NCBI RefSeq assembly: GCF_023169545.1
Contig: NZ_AP019769.1
Location: 600,001 to 632,000, forward strand
DNA: 32,000 nucleotides
From: Nanobdella aerobiophila
Lineage (GTDB): Archaea; Nanobdellota; Nanobdellia; Nanobdellales; Nanobdellaceae
Reading direction: 5' to 3'
Shown: piece after piece, positions 1 to 8,247 of the stretch
Position numbering within the stretch: the first letter of the stretch is position 1
Layout: every line of letters starts with the position of its first letter
The notes under the pieces: generated by a model
Told to the model about the DNA's origin: nothing
What the model saw: the letters and a program-made list of their open reading frames with translations, nothing else
Databases searched by the model: none
Translations under genes and position numbers: made by a program

Positions 1-198
1 AATAATAACATTACTAGTAGTTATATTTATACATGCGTTACCAGAACCTGTCACTGTTAAATTCTTAGTTAAATAATAATAACCAGGAGAACTAATCGTA
101 AAACCACAAGAACTTATGGGTGTAGCAGAAAATACTTTAAAATTCACTAAAAGTAAAAGGCTAACCAATGATAATAAATATTTATATATTTTATTCAT
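1..198 (-). CDS. Partial CDS (N-terminus only; gene runs off the left edge): signal-peptide protein with a parallel beta-helix/NosD-like opening
   Basis: My own reverse-strand translation from the ATG (complement of 196-198) is stop-free down to position 1: MNKIYKYLLSLVSLLLLVNFKVFSATPISSCGFTISSPGYYYLTKNLTVTGSGNACINITTSNVII. It has a hydrophobic leader, then a C..F.I..PG.Y.L...C.I.I..SNV pattern typical of archaeal beta-helix surface proteins. It is absent from the ORF track because the window edge truncates it. Confidence 0.5.
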   Translation of the reverse strand, partial: MNKIYKYLLSLVSLLLLVNFKVFSATPISSCGFTISSPGYYYLTKNLTVTGSGNACINITTSNVII

Positions 199-210
199 TC
201 AAAATTTATT

Positions 211-219
211 AAAAAAAAA
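211..219 (-). terminator. Oligo-T tract (T9 on the minus strand) just downstream of the EF-2 stop; candidate archaeal terminator
   Basis: The run of 9 A on the plus strand at 211-219 is T9 on the coding strand of EF-2, 12 nt past its stop codon (232-234). Archaeal termination typically uses T-tracts. In DNA this AT-rich the signal is weak. Confidence 0.25.
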
Positions 220-231
220 TCTTATAAATAT

Positions 232-2436
232 TTAGTGAACACCTTCTGGAATTCCTTTTCTTTTCCTTATAGAATCTATTATTTGTTGTTGCAAGTCTTT
301 TGGTACTCTCTCAAATAATTGATCCTCTAAATACCATACTCCTTTACCAGATGTAGTAGACCTTAATTCATCAGTAAATCCAAACATATTTGCTACAGGT
401 ATCTTAGCTTTTAAAGTAGATCTCTCTTCTTGAACATCCATTTCTAATACCTGTCCTCTCCTAGATTGTAATAATGATGTAACATCACCTACCGTTTCTG
501 GAGGTGTATCTATTCTTATAATTTGTAATGGTTCAAATAATGCAGGTTGTTCTAATATTGCTTCTTTTATTGAATCTTTAGCTGCAGGAATTATTTGAGC
601 AGGACCCCTATGTATTGCATCTTCATGTAATACTGCATCAATTAATTTTACTTTCATCATTATTGTTGGCTCCCATGCTAAAGGTCCTTGTTCCATAACT
701 TCCTTAAATCCTTGTACAATATATTCTATTACTTCTGGTAAATGTACTAAACCTCTAGTCATATCTATCAATACATTTCCATTTTGTACCATAATTATTC
801 TTCTAGCTTCTTCTTTATCAAAACCAATTTCATTAAATACTTTCCATAAATCTTCTTTTTTTATTCTTCCTTCTTCTATCTTACCTTCCCTTATATATTC
901 TCTTAATTTTTCATATATATTTGGATCTAAAGGTTCTATCTGGAAATATATTTTATTATGTTTATTTGGAGACTTACCTTCATGTACCTGCGTTTGTTTT
1001 AATACAGATTCTCTATATACAACTATTGGCTCACTTACATTTATAGGAATTCCAAAATCATTTTGAACCCTATATTCTAATATTTGTAAATGTAAGTCTC
1101 CTAAACCTGAAACCAATATCTCTCCTGTATCTTTCTTTTGTTCTACCTTTATTGTTGGATCTTCTCTTCTCATTAATTCTAATGTTTCTATTAATTTTGG
1201 TAAATCATTTGGATTTTTTGGTTCAAATGATTTTGTAACTACAGGATCTAACCAATGTTTTAATTCTTCAAATGTTTCTACTGATTTTGGATCTTGAACT
1301 TTTGCTACAATTGTTTCACCTGGATATAATCCTCTTATACCAACTAAAGCAATAATATTACCAGCTTTAACAGAATCTACATTTAATCTTTGTATACCCT
1401 TCCATATTGCTACTTGCTGTATTTTCACTGGTCTTCCAGCCTGGATTAAATATACATCATCTCCCTTGTTTAATGTTCCCGAAAACATTCTAGCAGTAGC
1501 AATTTCTTGTTTAGATATCTTATCTATAATTACATTTGTAACATTTATAACTAAAGGTCCATTTGGATCTGTATTTTCCATAGCTTTACCAACTTCTGAA
1601 TTTATATTACCTTTCCATATATGTGGGATTCTATATCTTTGAGCTTCTATTGGAGATGGTAGATGATTTATAACCATATCCAAAATTACTTTTGCTACAG
1701 GAGCTTTTTTTCTCATTTCTTCCCTTAATTTTTCCTTATCATTATCGTATTTTGTGTATATATCTATTATATCTTTAAACGAAACATTATTTTTCTTCAT
1801 ATATGGTAATGATAATGCCCAATGAAATTTTGCAGACCCAAATGCTACAGAACCATCTACCACATTTACATTCCATTTACCTTTAAATTCTTGGGGAGTA
1901 TACTTTTCTATCAACCTATTTACTTCTATAACTATATTACCAATTCTTTCCATTATTTGCTGCGGACTTAATTTTAATTCAGTTATTGCTCTATCAGCTT
2001 TATTTATAAATAATACTGGTTTTACATATTCTTTTAAAGCAGTTCTCAATACAGATTCTGTTTGAGGCATTATTCCATCTACAAAATCTACAACAACAAT
2101 TGCACCATCTGACGCTCTAGCAGCTCTAGTGACTTGTCCGGAAAATTCTACATGTCCTGGTGTATCTATTAAATTTATTAAATAGTCTTGATTTTCAAAT
2201 TCATGAACCATAGATACTGCAGCACCATATACTGTCATTTCTCTCTGTTTTTCTGTTTCATGCCACCAGGTAAACATTGCCTCACCAGCAAGCTCTTCTG
2301 CTAACATTCCTGCACCGGCCAATAAAGAATCTGTCAATGTAGTTTTACCATGGTGAATATGGGCTATTATTTCCATATTTCTAATATTCTTTGGATTATC
2401 CATGACTTTCAAGACTTTGTCTGTCAATGACGCCAT
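232..2436 (-). CDS. fusA: Translation elongation factor 2 (aEF-2)
   Basis: The GTPase motifs are present: AHIHHGKTT (G1), DTPGHVEF (G3), NKAD (G4). The diphthamide-site motif HEDAIHRGPAQ is also present, and the length is about 734 aa. The track ORF opens at 2454 on a TTG (complement of caa 2452-2454). The first ATG (complement of 2434-2436) gives MASLTDKVLKVMDNPKNIRN, which matches the usual aEF-2 N-terminus, so I prefer 2436. Confidence 0.95.
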   Translation of the reverse strand: MASLTDKVLKVMDNPKNIRNMEIIAHIHHGKTTLTDSLLAGAGMLAEELAGEAMFTWWHETEKQREMTVYGAAVSMVHEFENQDYLINLIDTPGHVEFSGQVTRAARASDGAIVVVDFVDGIMPQTESVLRTALKEYVKPVLFINKADRAITELKLSPQQIMERIGNIVIEVNRLIEKYTPQEFKGKWNVNVVDGSVAFGSAKFHWALSLPYMKKNNVSFKDIIDIYTKYDNDKEKLREEMRKKAPVAKVILDMVINHLPSPIEAQRYRIPHIWKGNINSEVGKAMENTDPNGPLVINVTNVIIDKISKQEIATARMFSGTLNKGDDVYLIQAGRPVKIQQVAIWKGIQRLNVDSVKAGNIIALVGIRGLYPGETIVAKVQDPKSVETFEELKHWLDPVVTKSFEPKNPNDLPKLIETLELMRREDPTIKVEQKKDTGEILVSGLGDLHLQILEYRVQNDFGIPINVSEPIVVYRESVLKQTQVHEGKSPNKHNKIYFQIEPLDPNIYEKLREYIREGKIEEGRIKKEDLWKVFNEIGFDKEEARRIIMVQNGNVLIDMTRGLVHLPEVIEYIVQGFKEVMEQGPLAWEPTIMMKVKLIDAVLHEDAIHRGPAQIIPAAKDSIKEAILEQPALFEPLQIIRIDTPPETVGDVTSLLQSRRGQVLEMDVQEERSTLKAKIPVANMFGFTDELRSTTSGKGVWYLEDQLFERVPKDLQQQIIDSIRKRKGIPEGVH

Positions 2437-2593
2437 TAGTATTTTTTTATTCAAAATAATTTAAAAAGGATCCTATATCTAAAAATTTCATTTTTGATAT
2501 AATAAAATTTTAAAAAGATAAAATAAGATCTACTAATAGAATGCCATATTTTTATAAATATAAAAATTTATTATAATTGCATAAAAAAGATAT

Positions 2594-2770
2594 TTATTTT
2601 GTTATTTCTAATTCGAAAGGAGGAGCCTTAAACTCTACCTTTTTATGATGACCATCACAATACGGCTTATTCTCTGAATGCCCGCATCTACATAAATGAT
2701 ATATAGCCTTTCCATCTACATTTACCTCATATGGTCCATTTTCAAATCCTCTTATAACAACTCTTGCCAT
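2594..2770 (-). CDS. CDGSH-type iron-sulfur domain mini-protein (58 aa), below the ORF-track size cutoff
   Basis: My own translation is MARVVIRGFENGPYEVNVDGKAIYHLCRCGHSENKPYCDGHHKKVEFKAPPFELEITK. It contains C-x-C-x2-S-x3-P-x-C-D-G-H-H, the CDGSH 2Fe-2S signature. The region is locally GC-richer than its flanks. ATG is the complement of 2768-2770 and the stop is the complement of 2594-2596 (177 nt, in frame). Confidence 0.8.
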   Translation of the reverse strand: MARVVIRGFENGPYEVNVDGKAIYHLCRCGHSENKPYCDGHHKKVEFKAPPFELEITK

Positions 2771-2808
2771 TTATAAATTTAAAATAATATCCTTAAAAAT
2801 TTATTCTA

Positions 2809-3399
2809 ATGATAAATAAAAAATATATAATAATATTATCTGGTATAATATCTATAATAATTACAATAATATTAATATTACAAAATAATATGTATAATCA
2901 AGAACTTACAATAAAAATAAATAATAATAATTTAACATTATATAAATTAAATTTATATTATGAAGGATGTTATAATCTAACCATAAAAAATGGATATTTT
3001 ATAATATATCCTATAAGTTCTGCAGTTAATTTTTCTATGCCTACATACAATTATTTAAATACAACAAATATAATATATTGCAACGAAGATATATCATATA
3101 ATATAACAACAAATTTCTGCTCACCAATTGCCTGTCCAACTATATGTACTACAAATGGTTGTGTCAAATGCAACTATTGTAATAATTTTACATATTACAT
3201 AAATATAAACTATCCGATAATAATCGGAGAAAATAATGATTATATATCTAGTTCATCTATAGGAAATATAGTAATACTTAAATATGATAATAATGTATAT
3301 TCAACAAATAATGATATAATAATTAATAATATAGATAATAATTCAATATATTATATTATTAGCTTATATATAAATGATATAAAGAAGATTATTGTATGA
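2809..3399 (+). CDS. Hypothetical N-terminally membrane-anchored, Asn/Ile-rich, Cys-cluster protein
   Basis: The N-terminal TM segment is IIILSGIISIIITIILIL. Many N-x-S/T sequons follow, plus a cysteine cluster CSPIACPTICTTNGCVKCNYC. The stop overlaps the next start (ATGA at 3396-3399). I recognise no family. Confidence 0.55.
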   Translation: MINKKYIIILSGIISIIITIILILQNNMYNQELTIKINNNNLTLYKLNLYYEGCYNLTIKNGYFIIYPISSAVNFSMPTYNYLNTTNIIYCNEDISYNITTNFCSPIACPTICTTNGCVKCNYCNNFTYYININYPIIIGENNDYISSSSIGNIVILKYDNNVYSTNNDIIINNIDNNSIYYIISLYINDIKKIIV

Positions 3400-4061
3400 A
3401 TCTGGCAGTATTATATTCGGGTGGGAAAGATTCTAATTATTCATTATTTATAACTTCTAAATATTACAAGGTATCTGTATTATTAAATATTATTCCAAAA
3501 AATAATGAAAGTTATTTATATCAATATATAAATAACAAAATAACATTATTGCAGGCAAAAGCATTAAGTATAGATATATATAGAGCAGAAGTAAATGAAT
3601 CAGAAGAAAAAACATTAAAAGAAGCTTTAATATATCTAAAAAAAGAATATAATATTGATGGATTAGTAACTGGTGCAATAAGATCCACATACCAAGGATC
3701 TAAATTTCAAAAAATTTGTAAAGATTTAAAATTATGGTGCTTTAATCCTATATGGTTAATAAACGAAAAAATATATATTAAAGAATTAATAAAAAATAAT
3801 TTTGAATTTATAATTACGGGATGGTATTCTTACCCATTAGATATAGATATTTTAGGAAAAAAAGTCAATACATATATATTAAATAAACTAATAGAATATA
3901 ATAAAAAATATGGAATAAATATAGCTGGAGAAGGTGGGGAATATGAAACAATAGTACTATACCAACCACTATTTAAAAAAAGGATAAATATAGAAAAATA
4001 TAGGATAAATATAGAAAAAAATTATGCCGAATATATTATAGAAAAAGCTAGTCTGATATGA
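3396..4061 (+). CDS. dph6: Diphthine-ammonia ligase (Dph6 / MJ0570-PH1257 family PP-loop ATPase)
   Basis: It has the PP-loop LYSGGKDSNY at the N-terminus and the family-specific AGEGGEYET motif near the C-terminus. It is about 220 aa and collinear with my memory of archaeal MJ0570/PH1257-type proteins. Confidence 0.85.
   Translation: MNLAVLYSGGKDSNYSLFITSKYYKVSVLLNIIPKNNESYLYQYINNKITLLQAKALSIDIYRAEVNESEEKTLKEALIYLKKEYNIDGLVTGAIRSTYQGSKFQKICKDLKLWCFNPIWLINEKIYIKELIKNNFEFIITGWYSYPLDIDILGKKVNTYILNKLIEYNKKYGINIAGEGGEYETIVLYQPLFKKRINIEKYRINIEKNYAEYIIEKASLI
3981..4022 (+). repeat. In-frame 21-bp tandem duplication (2 copies, 1 mismatch) in the dph6 3' end
   Basis: aggataaatatagaaaaatat (3981-4001) is followed by aggataaatatagaaaaaaat (4002-4022). 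Together they encode RINIEKY/RINIEKN. Confidence 0.85.
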
Positions 4062-4582
4062 TAGGGGTAATATATACAAATAAATATAAATTGTCTAGAA
4101 GAGAATTTCTAAGACCTATATTATATATATTGAAAGAAAATAAAATTAAATATAAAATATTTTCATATAAAAAAATAGCTAATAATGTAGATAAAATAAT
4201 AATTACAGGAACTGCGATAATGGATTTTGATTATTTAAATTATATAGATAATTTTAAGTTTATAATAGAAAAAGATATAAAAACACTAGCAATATGTTCT
4301 GGATCACAAATTATAACAAAATTACTAGGTTATAAATTAATAAATAAAGAAATAATTGGAAAATATAATATAAATCTAGTAAATGAGAATATTTTTACAG
4401 ATAAAGATTTTGAAGCATATTTTTTAATAACTAAGGTACCCCAAATAGATAAAAAATTTAATATATATGGAAAACTAAACAATATCCCCGTATTTTACAA
4501 TTACAAAAATATATATTTTACATTATTTCATCCAGAAGTTTTAAATAAATATATTATATTAAAATTTCTATATAATATATAA
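4058..4582 (+). CDS. Class I glutamine amidotransferase-like protein (stand-alone GATase subunit)
   Basis: The nucleophile elbow is LAICSGSQ (compare GICxGxQ) and the C-terminal FHPEV supplies the His-Glu of the triad. It is 174 aa, similar in size to GuaA subunit A-type GATases. The start overlaps the dph6 stop (ATGA at 4058-4061). Confidence 0.7.
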   Translation: MIGVIYTNKYKLSRREFLRPILYILKENKIKYKIFSYKKIANNVDKIIITGTAIMDFDYLNYIDNFKFIIEKDIKTLAICSGSQIITKLLGYKLINKEIIGKYNINLVNENIFTDKDFEAYFLITKVPQIDKKFNIYGKLNNIPVFYNYKNIYFTLFHPEVLNKYIILKFLYNI

Positions 4583-4585
4583 TAT

Positions 4586-4638
4586 CCCTACCGAGGGTAA
4601 CCTTAGATTTATGAAAAGGTAGAGTTGGTGGGGGTACA
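4586..4638 (+). ncRNA. H/ACA box guide sRNA (single hairpin); predicted target is the 23S helix-69 loop U equivalent to E. coli U1917
   Basis: Lower stem: CCCUACC (4586-4592) with GGUGGGG (4627-4633). Pocket: GAGGGUA (4593-4599) opposite AGAGUU (4621-4626). Upper stem: ACCUU (4600-4604) with AAGGU (4616-4620). The apical loop AGAUUUAUGAA has facing GA/GA dinucleotides. The ACA box lies at 4636-4638, 15 nt from the pocket top. The pocket strands pair with 23S AACUC-UG-ACCCUC (complement of plus 30972-30984). Confidence 0.7.
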
Positions 4639-4693
4639 TAATGAAGATGCCATGTCCCAGTCTGATATATGATGAAAGGAGTAGCTACAGATA
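4639..4693 (+). ncRNA. Candidate C/D box sRNA directly abutting the H/ACA hairpin
   Basis: Box order is C AUGAAGA (4641-4647), 14 nt, D' CUGA (4662-4665), UAU, C' AUGAUGA (4669-4675), 12 nt, D CAGA (4688-4691), about 51 nt overall. The D-guide GGAGUAGCU (4678-4686) is perfectly complementary to 23S rRNA (plus-strand text ggagtagct, 30467-30475). The terminal boxes are non-canonical and the first spacer is long, so confidence is modest. Confidence 0.4.
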
Positions 4694-4739
4694 AAAATAT
4701 TAATAATTATTAAAACAAAATTAATTTAATATAAAAAAT

Positions 4740-6638
4740 TTATTCTTCTATCTTCTCTTTCTTATTTCCACCTCTTCCTCTTGATTCTAATAATACTGCA
4801 GCTATTATTATTATCGCAACTGCTACTAATATCCAAAATACTATCGATTCTAAATTATATGTAGGTGTTATTAATTGTTCTCCCGTCGAAGTATATGTTT
4901 GATTTAATGAATATAATATCTCTCCATTATTTGCATTTATTACATCTACATAAACTGTTACATTTCCAGATTCTGCTGTTACATTTAATGGTATTGTCTC
5001 TGAATATGTTCCACCTATTTGTACATTTTCTTCCTTTGGATATACTTTTCCACCTACTGCATATGATTGTATTATTAAATTATATATTGATGTTGTATTT
5101 GCTGTTAGTATCAGGTCTATTGTTGTATTCTGACCAACTGATAATGGTTGGTATGCTTCTAAAGATGCTGATATTGGAGTATATACAGGTACTGATCCAT
5201 TTACATATATATTATATGGATATACTTCTTGTGCTCCATTATACAAGAATACAATATTTAATGGATAATAACCTGCCTGTAGATTATTTGGTATATATAT
5301 TACCACTGGCAATTGCTCTACTTGATTTGGAGATAATGTAATTGTTGATAATTGCTGATTTATATTTAATTCTTCTGATTGTATCATTGGGGTTACCTGT
5401 ACTTCCATTGGCAAACTATCTTGTAATTGTATTTGCAATTGTACATATGATCCTGGTAGTATATTATATGTATTTGGTTCTACTGATATTACATTAACTG
5501 GATTTATTGAATTTTGATCTATTGCTACAGTATAATTATATTGATTTACTACAACTCCATTTTGATATAAATATAATATTATATTGTAATATCCTGGACT
5601 TAATTCTTCTGTATTTAATGGCAATGTTATCTCAGATTGTTGACCTGGTTGTACATCTTGTGAATTCATTAAATTATATTCTAGATATCCATATTCATTA
5701 TATAATAATAATTGTACTGTTGCATTTACAGTTTGATATCCTGAATTCTGTAATAATAAATTTATATCATATATTGAGTTTCCTAATGATTGCAATGAAT
5801 TAAAGTTTGGCGATATTGATAATACCTGTAAATTTTCTCCATTTTCATTATTCGATATATAGAATGATTGTTCTGCTACTTGGTTTAATACCTGACCATT
5901 ATCCAATACTACAGTTAATTGTTCTTCTGCATATAGTTGTCCATATATATTTTGTAGATCATAGTTTGGAACATTTATTGTCAATAAATTCTCTCCCGGC
6001 TGTAATTGTACATCTTCCTGTGTCTGATATACAATACTACCATCTTGACCATATAATGTCAGTGTCAATGTAGCTGATTGTATATTTGTCCCTATATTTT
6101 GTAGATAAGATACTGACTGTATATTTAATCCATTTTCAGATGCTTGTACTGATGATATTACTTCTGGTAAATTTACCATCGATAATGTAAAATTATATGG
6201 TACAAATGTAATATTATAACTTTCCTGACCTGTAGCTATATCTTCAACTCCATTAGAATATATTAATGATACATTTGCCTCTACTGTGAAATTATTGTAT
6301 CCATTAGAATATTCTTGAACTAACTGCTGTAATTGTAAAGGATTTACAGATATATCATATATATTTAATCCTGTTCCTACAGTTACTGGCTCATAATATT
6401 GATACACTAATTGTCCATTTGGTGCAAATATATCAAAATATAGGTATGATTCTACTGGTACCTGATTCACTCCTAATAACTTTACTATAAATGTCATATT
6501 ATTCATAGAATTTGCCAATAATGTCTGCGTCTGTGGTTCTATTATTATTTCCTGCGAATATACTGCTAATCCTACTATCCCTAATGCTCCTAAAACAAAA
6601 GAAAGCTTCTTAAGTGTTGTCACTAGTCGATTATTCAT
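4740..6638 (-). CDS. Large cell-surface protein (S-layer/adhesin candidate) with tandem CARDB-like beta-sandwich repeats and a C-terminal TM anchor
   Basis: The N-terminal signal/TM is LSFVLGALGIVGLAVYS. The C-terminal TM IVFWILVAVAIIIIAAVLL is followed by a basic tail, RGRGGNKKEK. About five roughly 100-aa modules rich in N/Q/Y/V show CARDB-like endings (for example GQQSEITLPLNTEELSPGYYNIILYLYQNG and GTYSETIPLNVTAESGNVTVYVDV). There are many N-x-S/T sequons. Confidence 0.7.
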   Translation of the reverse strand: MNNRLVTTLKKLSFVLGALGIVGLAVYSQEIIIEPQTQTLLANSMNNMTFIVKLLGVNQVPVESYLYFDIFAPNGQLVYQYYEPVTVGTGLNIYDISVNPLQLQQLVQEYSNGYNNFTVEANVSLIYSNGVEDIATGQESYNITFVPYNFTLSMVNLPEVISSVQASENGLNIQSVSYLQNIGTNIQSATLTLTLYGQDGSIVYQTQEDVQLQPGENLLTINVPNYDLQNIYGQLYAEEQLTVVLDNGQVLNQVAEQSFYISNNENGENLQVLSISPNFNSLQSLGNSIYDINLLLQNSGYQTVNATVQLLLYNEYGYLEYNLMNSQDVQPGQQSEITLPLNTEELSPGYYNIILYLYQNGVVVNQYNYTVAIDQNSINPVNVISVEPNTYNILPGSYVQLQIQLQDSLPMEVQVTPMIQSEELNINQQLSTITLSPNQVEQLPVVIYIPNNLQAGYYPLNIVFLYNGAQEVYPYNIYVNGSVPVYTPISASLEAYQPLSVGQNTTIDLILTANTTSIYNLIIQSYAVGGKVYPKEENVQIGGTYSETIPLNVTAESGNVTVYVDVINANNGEILYSLNQTYTSTGEQLITPTYNLESIVFWILVAVAIIIIAAVLLESRGRGGNKKEKIEE

Positions 6639-6643
6639 AAGTA

Positions 6644-7447
6644 TTATTTATTATAAAAAGACTTATAAACGTTACTACCCTTTAAAAGGTATAGATCACT
6701 ATCACCGGGCAAGTATATTATAATATCATTATGATCAATTTTAAAAATTTTACTTAATTCCTTGGCTATATCTAGTTGCTTTTTATTTCCAGGAACCACT
6801 ATTGCATAATTTTGATATTTTTTTGTTATTACTTCTGGAACTCCAGAAAAAATTTCGTAGTTATCAAAAGATAAAGCTATCTCTAGCTTAACATTCTTTA
6901 TATAATTTTTATTCCCATATATCATAAATGATCCTTTATTCAAATACTCTCCAGATGGTGCTTTCTTAGATACCTGATCTGGATATACATAGTATACATC
7001 TATTGAAGAAAACTTATTTTTCCAGGCTCTAGAATATGAAGCCACAAATTTTGCCGATTCATATATATCTTCTTCTCTGGCTTTTCTACCATTTTTTAAA
7101 ATACCAAAAGGAGAACCTGTAATCTCTGTATGAAAAACAATATCATTATCTTCGAGATATTTATTTATTATTATTTCATTTGTTATAGAATCTTTCCCGG
7201 CAATCAATAGAAAATCATTTGAAGTTTTTGTCCATCTGAATTTTTCATACCATTTTCTGTTTTTCTTCTTTTCTTCTTTCTTTTTCTCTATGACTATGTT
7301 TTCTTCAATATTATTTAATTTTTCATTATAATCCTTTATTATTTCCTCTATCTTTTTCTTCTTATCTTTTAAGACTTTTAATCTACTATAGATATCGTTT
7401 ATATTTTCATATATTGATTTCCTTCTATCAATTTTTATTTCCAACAT
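6644..7447 (-). CDS. NFACT-R (DUF814) domain protein; C-terminal half only of an Rqc2/NEMF/FbpA-type ribosome quality control factor
   Basis: A Lys/Glu coiled coil is followed by WYEKFRWTKTSNDFLLIAGKDSITNEIIINKYLEDNDIVFHTEITGSPFGIL, the DUF814/NFACT-R signature (GrnxxqNexl...d.wfH...GS). No NFACT-N or HhH region is present. Confidence 0.7.
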   Translation of the reverse strand: MLEIKIDRRKSIYENINDIYSRLKVLKDKKKKIEEIIKDYNEKLNNIEENIVIEKKKEEKKKNRKWYEKFRWTKTSNDFLLIAGKDSITNEIIINKYLEDNDIVFHTEITGSPFGILKNGRKAREEDIYESAKFVASYSRAWKNKFSSIDVYYVYPDQVSKKAPSGEYLNKGSFMIYGNKNYIKNVKLEIALSFDNYEIFSGVPEVITKKYQNYAIVVPGNKKQLDIAKELSKIFKIDHNDIIIYLPGDSDLYLLKGSNVYKSFYNK

Positions 7448-8247
7448 ATATTATAGAATAAACATTTTTTACATGCATCTTTATAGACCTTTCCAGGATC
7501 CTTTTTCTCTTCTATCATATTATATATCTTATCTTTGGTATATAGTATATTTTCTATTTCTTTTTTATTTGTGAACTCTATTTCTTTTTTATAATTATCT
7601 TTAGCATATAATAAGTATCCTTTATTTATCTTATACTTTGGATACTCATCCTTTAATAATAAGTAATATGCATAAAGCTGAGTGACATGTTCTCTCCTAT
7701 AAAATCCAGATTTTATTTCATAAGGTATCATTTCATCTTTATATATCTCTATTCTATCTACCCTACCAATTATATTATTTTTTAATGATGTAACATCTAT
7801 TTCTGTAACCAATTTTGGTTCTAGATTTTCCCATAATTCTATACCATATAAATCACTCTCCAATATAAAATTATATACATTTTTTGCCCTCTCTTCTATA
7901 TCTTTACTAACATAATTATATGATTTTATCTTTATCTTATTCTTATCCAATTTCAATTTCTGAATTTCTTCATCAAATTCCAATAGAATATCCTCAATTA
8001 ATTTATATGTAAATTGATTATATAAATTTAATATATATTCATAACCTTTATTTTCCTTTATACTATATATTATATCTTTTTCTTTATCATTTATCCTATC
8101 AAATATAGAATGAACAATAGATCCAAAAATCTTCTGTTCTGTACTTTCTTCTTCATAATGCATAACCCTTTTTAAATAAACCTTTCTAGGACAGAAATAA
8201 TAATCAGTAATATCTGTTACTCTAATAAATATATTATTTAATACCAC
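7435..8247 (-). CDS. Cas4-like PD-(D/E)xK nuclease with a 4-Cys cluster (DUF83/RecB-family exonuclease); stand-alone
   Basis: The N-terminal Cys lies in YYFCPRKVYL. Other motifs are GSIVHSIF, GRVDRIEI (D), PYEIKSG (ExK) and QLYAYYLLL (QxxxY). The C-terminal cluster is CKKCLFYNIC (C-x2-C-x5-C). The stop region overlaps the NFACT-R start by 13 nt. Confidence 0.8.
   Translation of the reverse strand: MVLNNIFIRVTDITDYYFCPRKVYLKRVMHYEEESTEQKIFGSIVHSIFDRINDKEKDIIYSIKENKGYEYILNLYNQFTYKLIEDILLEFDEEIQKLKLDKNKIKIKSYNYVSKDIEERAKNVYNFILESDLYGIELWENLEPKLVTEIDVTSLKNNIIGRVDRIEIYKDEMIPYEIKSGFYRREHVTQLYAYYLLLKDEYPKYKINKGYLLYAKDNYKKEIEFTNKKEIENILYTKDKIYNMIEEKKDPGKVYKDACKKCLFYNICWK

Follow-up and report, generated by a model that had tools for sequence, protein, structure and literature searches.

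A class I glutamine amidotransferase coupled to Dph6 as the probable glutaminase subunit of an archaeal diphthamide synthetase

The stretch of the Nanobdella aerobiophila genome considered here (the window, 32,000 nucleotides, bases 600001-632000 of the genome contig) encodes, in two overlapping reading frames, the diphthine-ammonia ligase Dph6 and a 174-residue class I glutamine amidotransferase (GATase). The available sequence evidence makes it likely that the 174-residue protein is a dedicated glutaminase subunit which, with Dph6, forms a two-subunit glutamine-dependent diphthamide synthetase. That the GATase is a physical and functional partner of Dph6 is very well supported by gene order and by gene fusions, and the last nitrogen of diphthamide is probably derived from glutamine, not free ammonia, because many archaea keep the Dph6-GATase pair or fuse its two members.

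The elongation factor 2 (EF-2) of archaea and eukaryotes universally carries diphthamide, the modification targeted by diphtheria toxin; the final step of diphthamide biosynthesis is described as ammonium-dependent (EC 6.3.1.14). Glutamine-dependent amidation of diphthine had been suggested in an earlier note, made from the letters of the window alone, and that suggestion gains support from the conserved pair, the fusions and the intact catalytic triad described below, from which a mechanism can be inferred. The source genome consists of one contig of 668,961 bp with a G+C content of 24.6% and an estimated completeness of 94.8%; the closest named relatives are Nanopusillus, Nanobsidianus and 'Nanoarchaeota archaeon YN1'.

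Results

The coupled dph6-GATase pair

The dph6 gene (3396-4061, + strand, 221 residues) encodes a PP-loop ATP pyrophosphatase, with the PP-loop motif SGGKDS at residues 8-13 (3417-3434) and the motif EGGEYET at residues 179-185 (3930-3950). Its last codons end in ATGA (4058-4061, + strand), which also starts the GATase gene (4058-4582, + strand); the overlap is read directly from the sequence and translational coupling is predicted from it. The GATase product scores above the Pfam gathering threshold for PF00117 (27.8 bits compared with 22.8), and nothing else in the genome matches this family. Its catalytic residues are encoded at 4295-4297 (Cys80, in AICSG), 4529-4531 (His158) and 4535-4537 (Glu160), the latter two within FHPE. 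Every open reading frame (ORF) and motif named in the earlier note was recovered in its place, including the 174-residue class I GATase with intact Cys and His-Glu and the ATGA overlaps at 3396-3399 and 4058-4061, both of which are real. All sampled words of 2700-4700 are present in one RNA-Seq run, in which DNA carry-over is possible.

Conservation of the pair across archaea

Within this genome, where an overlap of the ATGA type is possible for approximately 76 of the 428 same-strand neighbour pairs, the dph6-GATase overlap is unremarkable; its conservation across phyla clearly exceeds chance, and it is because the junction is kept across phyla that coupling beyond chance is concluded. In a survey of 61 genomes of the class, 25 match the GATase query, 21 of them with members of this family; the remaining four matches are to other GATases, namely a fused GuaA and three GuaA-A-like proteins of family f5. 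In all 17 class genomes in which both genes are visible, one ATGA serves as the end of dph6 and the start of the GATase gene; these genomes comprise every GATase carrier of the same genus together with five other families of the class.

A broader scan, using one genome per species, covered 80 loci from at least nine archaeal lineages. Dph6 is encoded immediately upstream on the same strand at 59 of these loci and 0.5-2.5 kb upstream, again on the same strand, at a further 13. The 4-nucleotide overlap was counted by script in 50 of the 80, and five more end in ATGA or GTGA with an in-frame codon at -4, giving approximately 55. The carriers include Nanopusillaceae, Woese-, Pace- and Aenigmatarchaeota, Archaeoglobales, Methanosarcinales, Methanothrix, Methanomicrobiales, Nitrososphaeria, Bathyarchaeota, Thermoproteales and Poseidoniia. 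The adjacency, on the conservation of which the earlier note had made its proposal depend, is therefore kept in relatives, with Dph6 upstream of the GATase at 72 of the 80 species loci.

Natural Dph6-GATase fusions

A word-index search for longer proteins containing the window GATase found no fusion, a result that reflects the limited sensitivity of such a search, as fusions were then found by a profile search. The profile, built from 14 family members, matched 231 of 1.84 billion cluster representatives at E<=1e-30. The long matches among the best 150 number six, all with an N-terminal Dph6 and a C-terminal GATase joined by a linker of 30-70 residues, and three further cases were found by a region search, so that there are at least nine natural fusion proteins. 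The fusions keep the motifs GICAG and FHPE, and their GATase halves score 48-85 bits on PF00117; one of them, from a Methanothrix metagenome-assembled genome, carries the NCBI name 'diphthine--ammonia ligase'. The fusion label requires at least three changes on the tree, which suggests that Dph6-GATase fusion arose repeatedly, at least three times.

A predicted structure of the fusion protein P0129 has a predicted local distance difference test score (pLDDT) of 88.8 and a predicted template modelling score (pTM) of 0.88, the latter suggesting a defined domain arrangement. Its N-terminal half resembles PH1257 (2d13) and PF0828 (3rk1) at template modelling (TM) scores of 0.94-0.95, and its C-terminal half resembles GATases of the GuaA-A type. 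The earlier note had listed the lack of a predicted interface as a further refuting condition; the single-chain fusions and the P0129 model give that condition no support. As a separate observation, PF28410.1 is present in the precomputed Pfam list of the fusions P0129 and P0153-P0155; its absence from the lists of stand-alone GATases places it probably in the Dph6 half or the linker.

Fold and catalytic residues of the GATase

The AlphaFold2 model of the window GATase (pLDDT 94, pTM 0.91) has the class I alpha/beta GATase fold. A Foldseek search with this model returned 2a9v, 1wl8 and 7d97 at TM scores of 0.78-0.82 and a probability of 1.00, the best match in the Protein Data Bank (PDB) being Ta0944m (2a9v, TM 0.82), a putative GuaA-A. 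The Cys-His-Glu triad is kept in 88 of the 89 family members compared, and the columns of Gly51 and Gly82 are invariant in all 89; such conservation argues for a working glutaminase, the activity of which would be under selection.

Several observations weigh against this assignment or show that the partner is not kept throughout. The genus from which the window derives has A-I-C-S-G where the usual motif is G-x-C-x-G, and no solved PDB chain aligns across both halves of the P0129 model. Approximately half of the Dph6 genes in the class are without a glutaminase partner: among 57 class genomes with Dph6, approximately 17 have the class I partner, ten have the AsnB type and approximately 30 have neither. 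In one genome of the same genus (G005) the ORFX-dph6 arrangement, ORFX being the gene upstream of dph6 in the window, is followed by nothing downstream; the sister genera g3 and g4 are without the GATase partner. In G039 the GATase is shortened to 147 residues and in G024 only a remnant is left. Two genomes of the same order have catalytic substitutions. In G019, a genome in which no Dph6 was found, the GATase has Gly in place of Cys. G020 encodes a 376-residue Dph6 (L039:2017-3147, - strand) with a C-terminal domain that hhalign relates to the GATase family (probability 97%, E 6.6e-11), in which Cys is replaced by Gly and His by Asn (IGNSVQ, FNPEY), i.e. a dead glutaminase has been retained. 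The losses in G019 and G020 imply that the domain can be retained after its catalytic function is gone, so that a structural role is conceivable. Given its loss or inactivation in some close relatives, the GATase partner is, as judged from these genomes, accessory and decaying in places.

The leading alternative is that the GATase-like partner binds Dph6 but does not supply ammonia, acting instead in a structural, chaperone-like or regulatory manner, e.g. in EF-2 recognition or glutamine sensing, or as a hydrolase of the C26 gamma-glutamyl peptidase type. Retention of the fused G020 domain despite loss of its Cys and His, the Cys to Gly substitution in G019 and the weak Peptidase_C26 matches given by the fusions are all in its favour. 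However, it is difficult to see why the triad and the two glycines should be so well conserved in a protein with no catalytic role, the closest fold matches are genuine glutaminase subunits of amidotransferases, and the independent fusions of Dph6 to GAT-II/AsnB domains point to the same need for ammonia. In ten genomes of the class Dph6 is fused to an Asn_synthase domain, with GAT-II fused or encoded upstream, and the class I partner is missing from all ten; indeed no sampled genome carries both the class I partner and the AsnB-type fusion. On balance a role other than ammonia supply is considered unlikely, and a working glutaminase subunit of Dph6 is the preferred assignment.

Identity of the coupled Dph6

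The product of the coupled dph6 gene passes the Dph6_archaeal equivalog model TIGR03679 (227.1 bits compared with a cut-off of 197.3) and matches PF01902 at 182 bits (cut-off 23.2). PF01902 is single-copy in this genome, dph6 being its only representative, and the coupled dph6 is likewise the sole PF01902 gene in four of the five larger genomes that carry the pair. Dph5 is present (158 bits compared with a cut-off of 114), as is Dph2, and EF-2 (232-2454, - strand, 740 residues; 927 bits on TIGR00490) retains the motif HEDAIHRGPAQ, beginning at residue 610, in which the target His615 is encoded at 610-612. Since dph6 is the sole PF01902 gene and the genome also has Dph2, Dph5 and the EF-2 target His, the gene upstream of the GATase is, on family assignment, the housekeeping Dph6; ATP-dependent diphthine amidation by its product is predicted from family membership.

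The possibility that the coupled PP-loop enzyme is a DUF71 paralogue amidating some other substrate, by analogy with the proposed DUF71-B12 subgroup, finds some support in one Bathyarchaeota genome with three PF01902 copies. It is rendered very improbable by the equivalog-level score of Dph6, by its single-copy status here and in most of the larger genomes, and by the retention of Dph2, Dph5 and the EF-2 target residue; in addition, no B12 genes were seen adjoining dph6. Separately, G030 has two tandem Dph6 genes, at L045:2519-3208 (- strand, 256 bits on PF01902) and 3223-3954 (- strand, 234 bits).

Dph2 (PF01866) is encoded in two pieces approximately 200 kb apart, at genome positions 436187-436822 (model positions 50-270) and 636431-636643 (model positions 1-69), the second piece lying approximately 4.4 kb beyond the end of the window; a split Dph2 was reported for Nanobsidianus Nst1 (PMC3655853). 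The EF-2 gene is divergently transcribed from dph6, 941 nucleotides from the dph6 start, which bears out the earlier observation that EF-2, with its target His, lies approximately 1 kb away on the opposite strand. This divergent EF-2/dph6 synteny was seen only in Nanopusillaceae, and proximity to EF-2 was consequently rejected as part of the system.

The GATase is distinct from GuaA-A and has no other apparent partner

Members of the GATase family appear in databases as 'GMP synthase-like glutamine amidotransferase', 'glutamine amidotransferase-related' or 'hypothetical'. On the two models for GuaA-A the window GATase scores 24.2 bits (NF001975, cut-off 198) and 23.6 bits (TIGR00888, cut-off 172); it also fails the PdxT test (NF010050, 24.1 bits compared with a cut-off of 181), and no NCBIfam model reaches its cut-off on the family. 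In a tree of 104 sequences (quick search, LG+G4), all 89 family members are split from the GuaA, TrpG-type and CarA GATases by a branch with a Shimodaira-Hasegawa-like approximate likelihood ratio test (SH-aLRT) value of 99. A true GuaA N-terminal domain is encoded elsewhere in four of the five larger genomes with the pair, at 208-243 bits compared with 21-62 bits for the coupled copies. Judged by scores far below the cut-offs and by its separate clade, the GATase is not GuaA-A.

A search for other enzymes that might employ the GATase gave a consistent picture. The earlier note had stated that its proposal would be refuted by a GATase clustering with GuaA-A in a genome with GuaA-B encoded elsewhere; the clade is separate, and GMP_synt_C/GuaA-B (PF00958) was not found in the single-contig genome, nor in any relative carrying the coupled GATase. 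Asn_synthase (AsnB), CTP_synth_N, NAD_synthase (NadE), PdxS (SOR_SNZ, PF01680) and the QueC domain were also not found in the genome. Thus the check for other GATase-requiring enzymes which that note had recommended returned none of GuaA-B, CTP synthase, PdxS, NadE and AsnB. A motif scan of all ORFs in the genome identified just two SGGxDS PP-loop proteins, the second of which combines ATP_bind_3 with a zinc ribbon and is of the TtuA/Ncs6 thiolase (tRNA-thiolase) type. No other partner for the GATase is apparent in this 94.8%-complete genome.

That the GATase is an orphan GuaA-A or serves a different amidotransferase, its adjacency to dph6 reflecting a compact genome, would fit its database name, its best PDB match and the frequency of ATGA overlaps in this genome, but is largely refuted, and can be considered most improbable, by the lack of matches to GuaA-B, CTP synthase, PdxS, NadE and AsnB in the genome, the scores far under the GuaA-A cut-offs, the separate clade, the coexistence with true GuaA in larger genomes, and an adjacency and fusions conserved across phyla.

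The f5 proteins mentioned above (L023:93-644, - strand; L024:1474-2028, + strand; L025:1474-2025, + strand) are a different case. They are GuaA-A-like GATases encoded beside MTAP/RNase J genes and score 125-128 bits on TIGR00888, below its cut-off of 172; the genomes concerned also hold AsnB-Dph6 fusions. Their weak matches to the GATase query were considered as possible family members and rejected. GMP_synt_C was not found in the f5 genomes, which would make the f5 GATase a second orphan glutaminase.

Neighbouring genes and sequences

ORFX (2809-3399, + strand, 196 residues) is the first gene of the same-strand string, and its end shares an ATGA with the start of dph6 at 3396-3399 (+ strand; read from the sequence). 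The earlier description of a membrane-anchored protein is borne out: there is an N-terminal membrane anchor, and the sequence is rich in Cys and in N-x-S/T sequons. ORFX has no match in Pfam or NCBIfam, and an atlas search gave no usable match; the only homologues found are from the same genus (37-45% identity, ten conserved Cys columns), and in the sister genera g3 and g4 ORFX is not located between EF-2 and dph6. It looks like a fast-evolving surface glycoprotein and is probably an unrelated, genus-specific surface protein. A functional meaning for the ORFX-dph6 overlap was rejected, since approximately 18% of same-strand pairs could overlap likewise and only this genus has ORFX; ordinary compaction of the genome accounts for it.

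Between EF-2 and ORFX there is a small ORF, missed by the earlier note, for a CDGSH iron-sulfur protein (2594-2770, - strand, 58 residues, CRCGHSENKPYCDGHH). It is single-copy, and at least six genomes of the genus have a counterpart, 60-79% identical, at this position. As we know of no established electron donor for archaeal Dph2, a small iron-sulfur protein encoded beside EF-2 and dph6 may, speculatively, deserve a look in that connection.

Directly after the GATase stop codon there is a G+C-rich island (4583-4700, + strand; 37% compared with approximately 18% in its flanks), which marks the 3' end of the gene string. It includes a potential hairpin with a 12-bp stem (4583-4636), the z-score of which, -0.97, is not significant. 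Rfam and ARAGORN searches of positions 1-8000 of the window gave no match.

Discussion

Comparison with known systems

The proposal that Dph6 may receive ammonia derived from glutamine is not itself new; it was argued in 2012 by de Crecy-Lagard et al. from fusions of GAT-II/AsnB domains with DUF71, in work that described no class I partner and in general saw no clustering (PMC3541065). The view taken in the earlier note, that glutamine-fed Dph6 had not been described, must be modified in this respect, although the class I, two-subunit form does appear to be undescribed: full-text literature searches brought up no publication in which Dph6 has a class I glutaminase subunit. In the analysis of Nst1 by Podar et al. 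in 2013, a 'putative glutamine amidotransferase' was placed under amino-acid metabolism (PMC3655853).

One close architectural parallel is the two-subunit archaeal GMP synthase GuaAA/GuaAB (2lxn and 7d95 from M. jannaschii; 2a9v, Ta0944m), in which a small stand-alone GATase with a Cys-His-Glu triad serves an adenylating PP-loop enzyme that needs ammonia. The window GATase matches the fold of these GATase subunits at TM 0.77-0.82. By contrast with GuaAA/GuaAB, however, the partner here is Dph6 (PF01902), and the predicted substrate is a side chain of EF-2, not xanthosine monophosphate; further, the synthetase gene comes first and is followed by the GATase gene with a 4-nucleotide overlap, and the GATase belongs to a separate clade.

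The fusions of GAT-II, Asn_synthase and DUF71 domains in Methanohalophilus mahii, Methanosalsum zhilinae and 'Ca. Nanosalinarum' (PMC3541065) similarly link Dph6 physically to an amidotransferase. They differ in having a class II (N-terminal nucleophile, Ntn) GATase and a second PP-loop domain, both N-terminal to Dph6, whereas the GATase described here is of class I and is either a separate downstream subunit or, in other organisms, a C-terminal fusion. The ammonium-dependent Dph6 enzymes (yeast YLR143W; PF0828, 3rk1; PH1257, 2d13) are of the same family and have the same motifs, but have no glutaminase partner; eukaryotic Dph6 has C-terminal RidA-like domains (PMC3541065). GAT-QueC, NadE and AsnB share the overall logic, in that a glutaminase feeds ammonia to an adenylating PP-loop enzyme, while their synthetase families and substrates differ.

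Proposed mechanism

The reaction catalysed by the proposed synthetase would proceed in three steps. Dph6 would bind ATP and diphthine-EF-2 and adenylate the diphthine carboxylate, adenylation of this group being the established chemistry of Dph6. The GATase would hydrolyse glutamine via a thioester at Cys80, with participation of His158 and Glu160, as its triad and fold suggest. The ammonia so released would then pass directly to the Dph6 active site and displace AMP to give diphthamide, a transfer to which the coupling and the fusions point. The ATGA overlap would be expected to yield the two subunits in roughly equimolar amounts. Dph6 alone presumably still uses ammonium, which would explain why the GATase has been lost or inactivated in some lineages.

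Implications

It seems reasonably likely that many archaea, from DPANN symbionts to Methanothrix, Archaeoglobales and Nitrososphaeria, complete diphthamide with an undescribed glutamine-dependent synthetase, of two subunits or fused, and that there are three independent devices for feeding nitrogen to Dph6, i.e. the class I subunit, the GAT-II/AsnB fusions and the eukaryotic RidA fusions. If so, the existence of three such devices suggests that free ammonia is often not the physiological donor, and a Dph6 with a dedicated glutaminase subunit would constitute a new, glutamine-hydrolysing form of the enzyme. A function would also be provided for several hundred proteins now named 'GMP synthase-like', 'hypothetical' or 'TIGR00289 family', and inferences about purine metabolism in reconstructions of DPANN genomes would be corrected. 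For the organism itself, the assignment would explain the presence of exactly one glutaminase in a 669-kb symbiont: the sole remaining glutaminase of this nanoarchaeon would be retained to supply a single atom on a single protein.

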